DNA of 64,000 nt from an uncultured Candidatus Saccharibacteria bacterium. Lineage in GTDB: Bacteria > Patescibacteriota > Saccharimonadia > CAILAD01 > BJGX01. Shown here in pieces: positions 28,545-32,724 of this stretch. A program made the position numbers and the translations under genes. Numbering within the stretch: position 1 is the stretch's first letter; every line of letters starts with the position of its first letter. The notes under the pieces are model-generated. The model saw only the letters and a list, made by a program, of their open reading frames with translations. It ran no database searches and had not been told where the DNA came from. The stretch lies in NCBI GenBank assembly GCA_964552475.1, contig CAZKFZ010000002.1, positions 5,316 to 69,315 on the forward strand. The letters are read 5' to 3'.

Positions 28545-29921
28545 TTATCTAGATTTGCTTAACTCATTAGTATAGCGATGTAGCATTGTCTCAACTGCTT
28601 TTCTTGTACTGGGCTCTAAATCTGTTTCTAATAATGGCTGTAGCTGATCAATAATGGTCTTAATAGATTCCGGGTCGCTCACATCTCCTCCGGCTTCACC
28701 ATATTGGTCTATAGATCTAGCCCTTAAAAAATAACCTTCGTATGGTTCATCTCCTGGTAATGGCCTGGCAGGATCAGCCTGAAGTGCATCTACCCTAAAT
28801 TTCCTACCATTGGCTGTGAATTCAATTGTAGTTAAGTCTTCGGTGGGCTTGACGATTTCTGGCGGCTTGTCGGTAAACTCTTGGGGTTTCACAACTATCT
28901 CAGCAATTGGTAAGCCATTTTGTTGAGCAAATTCTCGGAGTTGAGCCGCTCGAGCTGGGTTGCCAATATCACTACCATCTTCACGAATACGTATATATAC
29001 TCCTGTTACTCTACCACTTGTAATGTTCACCTGATTGTAATTGTCTGGTTGAGTTTCTTTAAGTAAGGTTCGGGGGTCTGGTTGAGTTTCTTCTCTTACC
29101 ATATCGTTTAGGCCTGAGTCGTAAGACCAAGCGCCAAGCGCCTCTTCTTGACTACTAGGTGGCTCTATTATCAGCCCAGACATGCCTTCAAAAGTCCAAG
29201 TATGTTCTTGGTCGATAAGTGTAGTATTGAGTGGTCTCTCTGTTAAGCTAAATTCCTCTAAACCTAATGCTTCGGTGCGAGCTCGAATGTCTAGTGGTGC
29301 ATGCACCAAGAACGTAAACTCATCATCTGGTTGATAACGACGTGATTCTGGTTTTGTAACTATTTCCGACAACTCTACTTTAGGCATACTTTCTCCTTCT
29401 TGGTTTGTTGATGATTCTTGTTCATCTCGAGATTGTTCTTTTGTAGAACCCCTCATGGCATCAATTTTTTGTTTGGCAGAAATACCCATTTGCTCCAGCT
29501 CCCAACCCTCAAGACTAGTTTGTCGTGAAGACTTTACTTTGCCATCCTCGTCTAACTCTTCCATAAGAACAACATTTTTACCTTCTACCTGCACAACTGT
29601 AGTACGCCAACCTTCGGTATCGGTTTTGCCATCTTCGCGAAGTACCGGGGCTTCTAAGGTCTGGGGCATACCTAGGTCTTCACCGTTTGGACCCTTTGTA
29701 GACTTCCAACCCATATCTCCAAACTTCTCAACAATTGCCTTAACCTTGGCGCTATCACTTGGGTTGGTCTCTGCGCTTTCGCTTTTTTGTTTGGTTTCTC
29801 TTGCGATTCGCTTTAAATCTTCGGTTGTCTTGAGTTCTTCTTTGGTAGGAGGTACCACGCTGGTCTCTGCATGGTTGCCACCTGGTTGTCTTGTCTCTGG
29901 ATTGTTAGCGGTATCACTCAT
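28545..29921 (-). CDS. hypothetical acidic cytoplasmic protein (458 aa), last gene of the uvrB-coupled trio
   Basis: The start ATG overlaps the stop of the upstream 267-aa ORF (ATGA at 29918-29921). N-half is low complexity and Glu/Asp/Thr-rich. No recognisable motif. Confidence 0.6.
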   Translation of the reverse strand: MSDTANNPETRQPGGNHAETSVVPPTKEELKTTEDLKRIARETKQKSESAETNPSDSAKVKAIVEKFGDMGWKSTKGPNGEDLGMPQTLEAPVLREDGKTDTEGWRTTVVQVEGKNVVLMEELDEDGKVKSSRQTSLEGWELEQMGISAKQKIDAMRGSTKEQSRDEQESSTNQEGESMPKVELSEIVTKPESRRYQPDDEFTFLVHAPLDIRARTEALGLEEFSLTERPLNTTLIDQEHTWTFEGMSGLIIEPPSSQEEALGAWSYDSGLNDMVREETQPDPRTLLKETQPDNYNQVNITSGRVTGVYIRIREDGSDIGNPARAAQLREFAQQNGLPIAEIVVKPQEFTDKPPEIVKPTEDLTTIEFTANGRKFRVDALQADPARPLPGDEPYEGYFLRARSIDQYGEAGGDVSDPESIKTIIDQLQPLLETDLEPSTRKAVETMLHRYTNELSKSR

Positions 29922-30721
29922 GCCGATATCCTATCACTTTTCGGCAAAAGTCGTCTTTTTATATGATCATAGGTTTCAGTTCTGTCGTCTTTGGAAAGTT
30001 TAAGATTATCAATTGTATCTATTAATTTATTTCTAGCGTTTAGCATAACTTCAGGCCCAACAAGTTGTTCGATCTTTTCAATTAGTGGTAGAAGAGCGCC
30101 CAAAGGCCTAATAAGACATTGGTACTGATACTCAGGTGAAGACAACTCAAAGCTATCTGTATCTATAAAGTATAGATCTGGCTGAGGTAAACCCTTGATA
30201 GTACCAAAAACATACTGGTCTGGTTTAAAGATATCTCTATAAAAATCTTCTCTATTAGCAACTTTTGTGTGTAAATAATCTACTAACTTGTCTACAAGTT
30301 CGATAATTAGTGGTAGGGCGTCGTGTAGTTCTTTGGTGTCATGGTTGCTTGGTAATAGCAAGTCTTTTGCCGTCACACCATCTACTTCGGCGGTAACAAC
30401 AAACAAAGACGGTAAGCCATTTTCTTCACTATCCCCAACTACATGGTATGTAGGCGCTATTGCGATTTTGTAATGTCGAATTTCGTCGGCAAGGTGCGTT
30501 AGCATTTCGCCTTTGGTTTCAAGCAGTCTATATGCATCTGCACGCGACATATCTTCTAGCGCTCTTTCACTATACTGTGCGACACACCGAATTTGATAAT
30601 TTTGTGGTAAGTTGCCCTCAAATTCACGTAGTTTGTTGGGATGAAGATGTGATTTTTTTGTAGGCAATCTAAAAGCTGGTATAGATTTATCTTCATTATT
30701 TTGTGGTGTTGGTTCACTCAT
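29918..30721 (-). CDS. hypothetical cytoplasmic protein (267 aa), translationally coupled to uvrB
   Basis: Start overlaps the uvrB stop by 4 nt (30718-30721). No motif recognised. Confidence 0.6.
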   Translation of the reverse strand: MSEPTPQNNEDKSIPAFRLPTKKSHLHPNKLREFEGNLPQNYQIRCVAQYSERALEDMSRADAYRLLETKGEMLTHLADEIRHYKIAIAPTYHVVGDSEENGLPSLFVVTAEVDGVTAKDLLLPSNHDTKELHDALPLIIELVDKLVDYLHTKVANREDFYRDIFKPDQYVFGTIKGLPQPDLYFIDTDSFELSSPEYQYQCLIRPLGALLPLIEKIEQLVGPEVMLNARNKLIDTIDNLKLSKDDRTETYDHIKRRLLPKSDRISA

Positions 30722-32724
30722 CTACTCATCCTCTTACTACTCACTACATCTTTTATCTCATATATCTGGTCTCTTAGCTCAGCAGCACGCTCAAACTGTA
30801 GGTTTGCAGCTGCAAGTTCCATTTGTTCAGTAAGTTGCTTGGTCATAAACTGCAACTCGTCTTTTGGTATTTTTTTGAAATCAATTGATTGCAAGTCTGA
30901 TTTCTCAGCTTCTATCTCTGCTTGCATACTTTCTGCCAAAGCCTTTTGTACAGTCTTGGGTGTAATACCATGCTTTTTATTATAAACTTCTTGGTGAGCT
31001 CTACGATCTGTGGTAGTTTTTATTGCTCGCTCCATAGAACCGGTAATTTTATCGGCATACATTATTACTTTACCGTCTTGATGACGAGCGGCACGGCCAA
31101 TGGTTTGAATAAGGCTGGTTTCAGAGCGTAAAAAGCCTTCTTTATCGGCGTCTATTATCGCTACTAAGCTTACCTCGGGCAAATCTAAGCCTTCACGAAG
31201 CAAGTTGATACCTATTAATACATCGTAAACACCAAGTCTAAGATCTCTAAGAATATCTGTGCGTTCTAAGGTATCGACGTCGCTATGCAAGTACTGCACT
31301 TTTATACCTAGGTCTTGTAGGTAGTCGCTTAGGTCTTCAGCAATTCTTTTGGTGAGGGTGGTTACTAATGTACGTTGACCATTTTTTATGCGGTCTCGTA
31401 TTTCGGCTAGCAAATCATCTACTTGGTTTTCACTAGGTCGTACTTCTATAATTGGGTCTAACAAGCCAGTTGGTCGCACAATTTGCTCTATTACCTGATG
31501 GCTTCTTGATAGCTCATATTCTCCTGGGGTAGCCGAAACGTATATTACTTTATTAATATGTCGTTCAAACTCGGTAAAGTTAAGAGGTCTGTTGTCTAGG
31601 GCGCTAGGCAGCCTAAAGCCATGCTCAATAAGAGTTTGTTTGCGCGCTCTGTCGCCATTGTACATACCTCCTACTTGCGGAATAGTCATATGTGATTCGT
31701 CTATAAACATCAGATAGTCGTCCGGAAAATAATCCATCAGGGTGGCGGGTTGAGCGCCCGGTTCGCGATTAGTCAAGTACCTGGCATAATTCTCTATACC
31801 TTTTACATAGCCAGTTTGTTCTAAAATTTCTAGATCGTACTTAACACGGTTCTCTAAACGTTGAGCTTCTAGGAGTAGGTCGTTATCTTTAAACCATTGT
31901 ACTCGCTCTATAGATTCTTGTTGAATATTTATCATAGCCTGCTGAAGTTGTTCGCGTGGTGTTACGTAGTGCTTGGCCGGAAATATGGAAAGATTATCTA
32001 GGTTTTCCATAACTTCACCAGTTAAGTAATTAATTTGCTTGATAGCTGTTATCTCATCACCAAAGAACTCTACTCTGTACGCAACTTCTTCACCTACCGG
32101 AAAGATGTCTAGATTCTCACCACGTATTCTAAAGCTCCCTCGTTCAAAAGCAGTGTCGTTACGAACATATTGAATGTCGTTTAGTTGACGAAGTAATTTG
32201 TCGCGCACTCGTCTCTCACCCACACCTAGCTTAATAGTCATATTGGTGTAATCAGTGATGTTTCCAATACCATAAATACAACTCACCGAAGCAATAATAA
32301 TAACATCTTTACTAGAAAGTAAGGCGGCAGTAGCAGCGTGACGAAGTCTGTCTATTTCTTCATTAATAGCACTGTCTTTTTCTATATAGGTATCGCTTCT
32401 GGCAATATAGGCCTCGGGTTGATAGTAGTCGAAGTAACTCACAAAATAATGAACGGAGTTGTTTGGGAAAAACTCTTTAAATTCACCATAAAGCTGAGCT
32501 GCCAAAGTTTTATTATGGCTAAGTATTAGTGTGGGTTTGCCATAATTTGCAATAACATTGGCCATGGTAAAGGTCTTGCCGCTACCAGTTATACCCAGCA
32601 GAGTCTGCTCTTTATTACCTTTTTTAAGTCCATCACTAAGTTTAGTGATGGCAGTGGGCTGATCGCCAGCAGGCTGGTATTTCGAGTTGAGGGTAAATAT
32701 ACTCATGTATTTATTATAAAACAA
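30718..32724 (-). CDS. uvrB: excinuclease ABC subunit B
   Basis: Helicase motif I (GITGSGKTF). Beta-hairpin region. C-terminal UVR domain (ELRDQIYEIK). Start is probably the internal MSIFTL (about 32706). Confidence 0.95.
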   Translation of the reverse strand: MFYNKYMSIFTLNSKYQPAGDQPTAITKLSDGLKKGNKEQTLLGITGSGKTFTMANVIANYGKPTLILSHNKTLAAQLYGEFKEFFPNNSVHYFVSYFDYYQPEAYIARSDTYIEKDSAINEEIDRLRHAATAALLSSKDVIIIASVSCIYGIGNITDYTNMTIKLGVGERRVRDKLLRQLNDIQYVRNDTAFERGSFRIRGENLDIFPVGEEVAYRVEFFGDEITAIKQINYLTGEVMENLDNLSIFPAKHYVTPREQLQQAMINIQQESIERVQWFKDNDLLLEAQRLENRVKYDLEILEQTGYVKGIENYARYLTNREPGAQPATLMDYFPDDYLMFIDESHMTIPQVGGMYNGDRARKQTLIEHGFRLPSALDNRPLNFTEFERHINKVIYVSATPGEYELSRSHQVIEQIVRPTGLLDPIIEVRPSENQVDDLLAEIRDRIKNGQRTLVTTLTKRIAEDLSDYLQDLGIKVQYLHSDVDTLERTDILRDLRLGVYDVLIGINLLREGLDLPEVSLVAIIDADKEGFLRSETSLIQTIGRAARHQDGKVIMYADKITGSMERAIKTTTDRRAHQEVYNKKHGITPKTVQKALAESMQAEIEAEKSDLQSIDFKKIPKDELQFMTKQLTEQMELAAANLQFERAAELRDQIYEIKDVVSSKRMSR

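Follow-up and report, generated by a model that had tools for sequence, protein, structure and literature searches.

Predicted kinase-fold and ADP-ribosyltransferase-like genes between uvrB and uvrA in a narrow clade of Saccharibacteria

We analysed a stretch of 64,000 nucleotides (referred to below as the window) from the genome of an uncultured Candidatus Saccharibacteria bacterium (GenBank assembly GCA_964552475.1, contig CAZKFZ010000002.1), in which two genes of no recognised family lie between uvrB and uvrA, genes of nucleotide excision repair (NER). The order of genes on the minus strand is uvrB, K, X, uvrA, uvrC, where K denotes an open reading frame (ORF) encoding 267 amino acids (aa) and X one encoding 458 aa (Table 1). 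The canonical uvrB-uvrA operon has the same flanking genes in the same order; the clade to which the window belongs differs from it in that one to three extra genes are inserted, the first of them coupled to the uvrB stop codon.

An earlier note on this DNA, drawn up from the sequence alone, had described both ORFs as translationally coupled in series with uvrB, and a direct reading of the two junctions shows them to be exactly as it claimed. The ATG of K overlaps the stop codon of uvrB in an ATGA at 30718-30721, and the ATG of X overlaps the stop codon of K in a second ATGA at 29918-29921. The final codons of uvrB, AGT AAG AGG ATG AGT AGA TGA, hold a Shine-Dalgarno-like AAGAGGA. The related loci L001, L010, L012 and L016 share it with the window, and a weaker version is present in L004, L013 and L020. 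The start of uvrB itself is ambiguous between a TTG and an ATG codon: the proteins called in relatives have 661-665 aa, and a start at ATG 32706 would give 662 aa here. The UvrB proteins of relatives carry the Pfam domains ResIII, UvrB_inter, Helicase_C, UvrB and UVR. No convincing intrinsic terminator was found from uvrB to uvrC, in agreement with the note, which had seen none until after 28545 and had uvrA and uvrC following on the same strand. A promoter-like sequence in the gap upstream of uvrA suggests that uvrA may also be transcribed independently of uvrB, K and X.

Both K and X are real genes under clear purifying selection, with rates of evolution a few times those of the repair genes. 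From a comparison of the window with L001, a relative at 94% UvrB identity, we estimated the ratio of nonsynonymous to synonymous substitution rates (dN/dS) at 0.124 for K and 0.097 for the whole of X, with 0.068 in the conserved core of X and 0.152 in its N-terminal extension. The corresponding values are 0.039 for uvrB, 0.022 for uvrA and 0.050 for uvrC.

Table 1. Features of the uvrB-uvrC region, in window coordinates (ART, ADP-ribosyltransferase; pLDDT, predicted local distance difference test)
Feature	Position	Strand	Description
uvrB	30718-32724	minus	longest ORF, 668 aa from TTG 32724; 662 aa from ATG 32706
Shine-Dalgarno-like AAGAGGA	30729-30735	minus	in the final codons of uvrB; 7 nt upstream of the start of K
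K	29918-30721	minus	267-aa ORF; atypical protein-kinase-fold protein
X	28545-29921	minus	458-aa ORF; ART-like core
X N-terminal extension, residues 1-185	29367-29921	minus	acidic, mostly disordered; lineage-specific
X small beta domain, residues about 100-145	29487-29624	minus	three strands and a helix; pLDDT 75-88
X ART-like core, residues ~190-345	28887-29354	minus	conserved H207, N232-T233-[TS]234, D268, N272, Y295-N296-Q297
X C-terminal beta-sandwich and helical hairpin, residues ~346-458	28548-28886	minus	predicted secondary structure
Promoter-like TTGAAG-17-TG-TACAAT	28487-28515	minus	71-bp gap upstream of uvrA; consensus match only
uvrA	25654-28473	minus	ORF; relatives carry UvrA Pfam domains
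uvrC	24175-25626	minus	ORF; relatives carry GIY-YIG and UvrC_RNaseH domains

Proteins K and X

Both proteins are uncharacterised, as had been stated. K has no match at E <= 1 in Pfam or NCBIfam, none at E <= 10 among the sequences of the Protein Data Bank (PDB), and none in PADLOC or PHROGs. X likewise has no match in Pfam, NCBIfam, PADLOC or PHROGs and nothing meaningful among PDB sequences. The earlier note had named confident housekeeping domains as the kind of result that would speak against its proposal, and the profile hidden Markov model (HMM) searches of both proteins gave none. Its statement that neither protein has a recognisable motif does not hold: a candidate catalytic loop of the kinase type and a candidate metal-binding Asp can be read in K, and the core of X is conserved and gives an ART-like fold match.

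A word-index search with K returned only K itself and one 87%-identical relative. Its further homologues include a 244-aa gene of L010 (34% identity, E 2e-25) and a 260-aa gene of L012 (27%, E 7e-22), and two proteins (P0023 and P0024) were added to the family by profile search. The family is rare, comprising five clusters in 5.8 billion proteins and a sixth member read from L010. Residues that are invariant across members only 26-29% identical include N41, Y42, R45, E72, D163, F165, K166, Q169, D187 and T188. In the structure model (predicted template modelling score, pTM, 0.72; residues 1-39 have pLDDT below 50) K has the bilobal fold of protein kinases, and its closest folds include Bud32 and RIO as well as the minimal effector kinases OspG and HopBF1. 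The candidate catalytic loop is D163-x-x-K166-x-x-Q169 and the candidate metal-binding residue is D187. Against the curated Bud32, RIO, APH and Pkinase family models K gave no significant HMM match, and we therefore file it as a kinase-fold protein outside any named family. K is a minimal, atypical protein-kinase-fold protein, for which ATP binding is predicted.

All K proteins, together with one subclade of X proteins (P0005-P0011), begin with M-x-[ED]-P-T-P (window 30704-30721, L010:2897-2920, L012:7396-7420). Conservation is at the level of the protein, and the motif may be a targeting or docking peptide common to these proteins or a relic of recombination. We ruled out a DNA-level element, given that synonymous sites differ and that the motif stays when K is the second gene.

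X has 19 close homologues, mostly of 281-324 aa, and their alignment is limited to window residues ~186-458. An exhaustive HMMER search recovered 73 representatives, with 24 full-length matches. Pfam scans of 69 members of the X family revealed no shared family, and neither these members nor the window protein matched any curated ART family in Pfam or NCBIfam. X-type genes were detected in 2 of 185,579 species-representative genomes in a scan with a narrower X alignment. In the window protein and in P0028, P0034, P0039 and P0042 the X domain is C-terminal, and the N-terminal regions that precede it are unrelated and variable. The extension of the window protein occurs elsewhere only in P0004, which is 86% identical. 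The N-terminal half had been described earlier as acidic and of low complexity; most of it is indeed of low confidence or disordered (pLDDT of the extension mostly below 60, and below 50 at residues 1-27, 66-101 and 157-174), but it also contains the small beta domain listed in Table 1. A PC4/MoSub1 single-stranded DNA-binding domain in the extension was considered and is kept as a lead only: the Foldseek match, which may coincide with the small beta domain, is weak (probability 0.96, E 0.09), and sequence searches lent it no support.

The core of X is modelled with high confidence (AlphaFold2 pLDDT 95-99), and the positions of H207, T233/S234, D268, N272 and Q297 are invariant or nearly so. 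The position of Q297 is occupied by Glu in the wider X family ('YNEV') and by Gln in the uvrB-linked clade. These conserved residues follow one another along beta1, beta2, a loop and beta5 just as do those of CteC, the mono-ADP-ribosyltransferase of Chromobacterium violaceum that modifies Thr66 of ubiquitin (R-S-E, or cholera-toxin-like, clade; PDB 8ux2). H207, at the end of beta1, is order-equivalent to R65 of CteC; N232-T233-[TS]234, in beta2, to S97; D268-x3-N272, in the loop, to D134 and N139; and Q297, at the start of beta5, to E220. R65, S97 and E220 form the CteC active site, and D134 and N139 are needed for its full activity (PMC10810742); the Asp-x3-Asn of X recalls this catalytic pair. 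X differs from CteC in that the ubiquitin-recruiting insertion domain is missing from it and a C-terminal beta-sandwich and helical hairpin are found instead; X also belongs to a bacterium without a eukaryotic host and has no secretion signal. The X core is probably, though far from certainly, a genuine ART-fold domain that would utilise NAD+. The C-terminal region of X gave only weak, generic fold matches (ATP-synthase epsilon-like folds and helical hairpins). The X gene also contains a perfect 17-nt direct repeat (29043-29059 and 29076-29092), which duplicates 'ETQPD' in the loop preceding Y295-N-Q.

The space between uvrB and uvrA in relatives

Related loci were read by contig look-ups and by a scan of species-representative genomes. 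In the near clade, with UvrB identity of at least 79%, all K and X homologues with a readable context lie between uvrB and uvrA, and the start of the first inserted gene is at the stop codon of uvrB, or overlaps it, in every locus. The content of this slot varies. The arrangement uvrB-K-X-uvrA is found in the window and L001, uvrB-X-uvrA in L004-7, L008 and L020, uvrB-X-K-uvrA in L010, and uvrB-K-uvrA in L013 and L016; in L012 uvrB is followed by X, an extra 168-aa coiled-coil gene and K, and in L023 a gene of a third family, Y, stands between uvrB and uvrA. K and X are thus adjacent in several genomes. The conservation of uvrB with two further ORFs, put forward in the note as a test, holds in that the insertion recurs next to uvrB in related Saccharibacteria, but there is no fixed pair: the slot may hold K alone, X alone, the two in reverse order, or Y. 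In L008, photolyase and photolyase-related (DPRP) genes directly follow uvrA (L008:11886-14704), which makes a larger DNA-repair cluster around the X gene.

The slot is filled in at least nine distinct lineages, with UvrB identities of 79-94% and with identities down to 26-51% among the K and X proteins. The persistence of the coupled position in relatives whose inserted genes are only 27-51% identical goes beyond chance. A chance juxtaposition of unrelated orphan genes in one genome, to which the commonness of overlaps here and the rarity of both families would lend some credit, is very improbable: purifying selection acts on both genes, and conserved synteny already largely refutes it.

In an outgroup at 57-62% UvrB identity, a scan seeded with uvrB found uvrA directly after uvrB in 35 of about 65 readable loci, and in many other phyla uvrA follows uvrB by 10-90 bp. 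In this respect the note's expectation of a pairing of uvrB with uvrA is supported. In a clade at 67-70% UvrB identity there is no uvrA downstream of uvrB.

The Y gene of L023 (79% UvrB identity) encodes 366 aa, is coupled to uvrB and is followed by uvrA (L023:3631-4731). Y is homologous to the C-terminal half of an X-Y fusion protein, P0027 (32% identity over 348 residues, E 3e-34), and since it is fused to X there, the slot draws on at least three linked families. Family Y, of ~340 aa, has the motifs GHDYNPEAQS and YGGSH, corresponds to P0027 residues 346-684, and has no Pfam or PDB-sequence match. A uvrB-coupled 296-aa ORF in L025, kinase-like at most by its motifs, was rejected as a member of K, with an hhalign probability of 0.2-0.3%. 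No paralogues of K, X or Y were found elsewhere in the window.

Two more distant X homologues also have a readable context. P0028 (L022) lies among NUDIX genes and an ABC exporter, and P0034 (L104-106) adjoins an ABC-F gene. The two NUDIX hydrolase genes that flank P0028 (L022:267-707 and L022:4077-4463) are compatible, at this one locus, with ADP-ribose or NAD-related chemistry. An association of X with tandem-ABC ATPases was ruled out, the ABC protein of L022 being a membrane exporter and that of L104 an ABC-F protein. Directly upstream of P0034 (L104:7001-8725) is a gene for a 444-aa protein with kinase-like motifs (L104:5607-6941), present also in L105 and L106. We rejected it as a member of K (hhalign 0.2-0.3%); it has only the motifs and a sub-threshold APH match (E 0.096). 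The ~90-residue N-terminal module of its product is common to P0034 and P0039 (E 7e-5 and 7e-4), which weakly suggests that kinase-like and X enzymes may be partners independently of uvrB. A 297-aa gene near the distant X gene, which from its sequence we take to be a putative IS30-type transposase-like gene, has opposite orientations in L104 (4188-5081) and L105 (4580-5473), contigs that are otherwise identical.

K or X relatives were not found in phage, plasmid or IMG/VR collections, and neither flanking repeats nor an integrase were found. On these grounds an origin from a mobile element or phage was rejected.

Possible functions of the inserted genes

Our preferred reading, held tentatively and at somewhat less than an even chance, is that K and X form a clade-restricted accessory enzyme cassette, co-expressed with UvrB and acting in the setting of the DNA-damage response. 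It would have its place inside the uvrB-uvrA operon, the ancestral arrangement, in this narrow clade of Saccharibacteria. K and X would be translated by re-initiation at the stop/start overlaps, with the Shine-Dalgarno sequence in the last uvrB codons serving K, and their synthesis would in this way be tied to that of UvrB; uvrA would probably have its own downstream promoter. K would use ATP and X would use NAD+. Since K, X and Y are interchangeable in the slot and linked elsewhere, we infer a shared macromolecular target on which they act by covalent modification; DNA, or repair or replication proteins, may for instance be ADP-ribosylated or phosphorylated. NER removes ADP-ribosyl-DNA lesions (PMC7003065), and this known substrate, together with synthesis tied to that of UvrB, would place the target in the DNA-damage response. 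A repair role for K and X is plausible, though unproven, and its one independent argument is the ART-like fold of X taken with the removal of ADP-ribosyl-DNA by NER.

Several observations weigh against this reading. Overlaps of exactly 4 nt occur in 10 of the 50 same-strand adjacent gene pairs of the window, and overlaps of any length in 17 of the 50, as counted on a rough longest-ORF gene set. With ATGA overlaps so routine, coupling by itself is weak evidence of shared function, and the note's view of tight coupling as a sign of a repair function is overstated. It was through searches with K or X themselves that L001-L020 came to light, and their constant position next to uvrB is thus partly a matter of ascertainment; in the unbiased scan seeded with uvrB, the Y-bearing L023 was the only near-clade locus with readable downstream sequence. 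Neither P0028 nor P0034 has a uvr gene nearby. The proposal of a UvrB-associated module thus stands for the conserved position in the near clade, mostly ascertained through K and X, and fails for these two distant homologues.

The most specific form of the preferred reading, in which X is an ADP-ribosyltransferase responding to DNA damage in the manner of poly(ADP-ribose) polymerases (PARPs) and K a DNA-damage kinase, both made stoichiometrically with UvrB and marking lesions or modifying UvrA, UvrB or UvrC to regulate NER, we regard as unlikely.

Another account holds that K, X and Y are hitchhiking variable cargo: effector- or toxin-type 'warhead' enzymes deployed by the episymbiont against its host or competitors, lodged in the gap and using the uvrB message for expression only, with no role in repair. 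The differences in slot content among close relatives (K, X, K and X, X and K, or Y, with the extra 168-aa gene in L012) fit cargo well, as does the faster evolution of K and X relative to the uvr genes. The nearest folds are those of the bacterial effectors CteC, OspG and HopBF1; the placement of the X domain after variable N-terminal regions, and the N-terminal module common to kinase-like and X proteins, are as in polymorphic effectors; distant members are unlinked to uvr genes, and ATGA coupling is generic in the genome. On the other hand, neither a signal peptide nor a recognised trafficking domain is present in K or X, and no immunity gene is adjacent. The lack of phage, plasmid or viral relatives, of flanking repeats and of an integrase also speaks against cargo. 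All near-clade K, X and Y genes with readable context are in one slot, with swaps taking place within it, which would be odd for freely moving genes, and hotspots rarely lie inside a translationally coupled operon. We consider the cargo account doubtful, though a serious possibility and the chief rival of the preferred reading.

The proteins could instead be non-catalytic adaptors that bind UvrB, UvrA or something else as structural or regulatory subunits. K would then be a pseudokinase, and X either an ART-like protein without activity or an unrelated scaffold rich in beta structure. The features of K that point this way also weigh against the reading of K as an enzyme. Invariant Gln169 replaces the catalytic-loop Asn, with a spacing one residue longer, and invariant Arg45, paired with invariant Glu72, replaces the Lys of beta3. 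A GxGxxG or other Gly-rich loop was not recognised in K, the first 39 residues of which are unmodelled. The missing loop, the unmodelled N-terminus and the substitution of Gln for Asn mean that K could be a pseudokinase or an ATPase. Bud32 and RIO, its best fold matches, act largely as ATPase switches within complexes. Like them K is small, has a reduced N-lobe and conserves a catalytic-loop Asp and a metal-binding Asp, but it departs from them in its loop and in its Arg, and its surroundings hold no KEOPS or ribosome-biogenesis genes.

For X, the points against enzymatic activity are of a similar kind. Foldseek with the X model returned nothing at E <= 0.001 and did not list CteC, and the X-family profiles reached no ART among PDB sequences, CteC included; there is no detectable sequence relationship between X and CteC. 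CteC depends for catalysis on an Arg and a Glu at the places that His207 and Gln297 occupy in X. The R-S-E clade is defined by an Arg on beta1, a Ser/Thr motif on beta2 and a catalytic Glu on beta5, and the H-Y-[EDQ] clade, that of diphtheria toxin and the PARPs, by a His on beta1, a Tyr, and a catalytic Glu, Asp or Gln (PMC10810742). With His and Gln instead of Arg and Glu, X falls outside the first, N-T-[ST] 232-234 being a partial match to it. X might fit the second: H207 and Q297 are conserved and correctly ordered, and F244, Y267 and Y295 are candidates for the Tyr. The tolerance of this clade for Gln at the catalytic position runs counter to the adaptor account. So does the pattern of conservation in both families, which across 25-30% identity is highest at the candidate active-site residues, as expected of working catalytic or ligand-binding sites. 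On balance, non-catalytic roles for both proteins seem quite unlikely.

A toxin-antitoxin or anti-phage module is also conceivable, with X as a DarT-like ART toxin and K as a HipA-like kinase toxin or regulator, located beside NER genes because NER mends self-inflicted lesions. DarT-DarG pairs a toxin that ADP-ribosylates single-stranded DNA with a macrodomain antitoxin, and the toxin, like X, is an ART-type enzyme functionally connected with NER, which removes its lesions (PMC7003065). This link is genetic and does not involve gene neighbourhood. The ART-like fold of X, the variable content of the locus and the NUDIX neighbours of a distant homologue agree with such a module. However, neither K nor X matches PADLOC, X has no Pfam match (DarT/DUF4433 included), and no macrodomain is annotated in the loci examined. 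X is found without K in L004, L008 and L020, and K without X in L013 and L016, so neither is an obligate antidote of the other. Strong purifying selection and a stable chromosomal location also argue against this explanation, which we hold to be decidedly improbable.

The pairing of a kinase fold with an ART fold resembles that of SidJ and SidE in Legionella, where a kinase-fold glutamylase regulates a mono-ART effector. K and X have no sequence relationship or demonstrated structural relationship to that pair; each of them also occurs alone, and the organism and context differ.

Both folds are known, whereas the two families are uncurated and their placement inside a uvrB-uvrA operon is undescribed in the databases and literature that we searched. 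Should K and X prove to act on DNA or on Uvr proteins, bacterial NER would for the first time be seen to carry kinase-like and ADP-ribosyltransferase-like accessory enzymes of its own, an echo of the control of eukaryotic repair by PARP and checkpoint kinases, and this in organisms thought to be stripped down for repair. The most specific form of the preferred reading, if true, would add an unknown NAD+- and ATP-dependent regulatory layer to bacterial NER in the genome-reduced Saccharibacteria. Even without a repair role, the locus yields two uncurated enzyme families, one with a minimal kinase fold and one ART-like with an H...Q signature, along with the linked family Y. It also offers a defined chromosomal slot in which Saccharibacteria swap such enzymes, a finding of relevance to the diversification of enzyme repertoires in these episymbionts. 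Few genomes are concerned, with close relatives of X in only two species representatives and K in five protein clusters.

Elsewhere in the window

Upstream of uvrB, a minus-strand gene at 33059-33655 encodes a 198-aa protein rich in Ser, Thr and Pro, with a C-terminal transmembrane helix and no Pfam match. A counterpart of 165-213 aa lies between a thioredoxin-reductase-like gene and a glutaredoxin gene in most of the relatives examined, L008 being an exception. At the end of the window, the GC content rises to 0.55 at 62001-64000, compared with about 0.40 elsewhere, and this GC-rich part contains a 368-aa ORF with a PEP (phosphoenolpyruvate)-utilising mobile domain (62868-63974, minus strand). 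Seven transfer RNA genes are present within 16167-21736: those for Leu-TAA, Cys, Phe, Gly, Val and Leu-GAG at 16.1-18.1 kb, and that for Leu-CAG at 21.7 kb.

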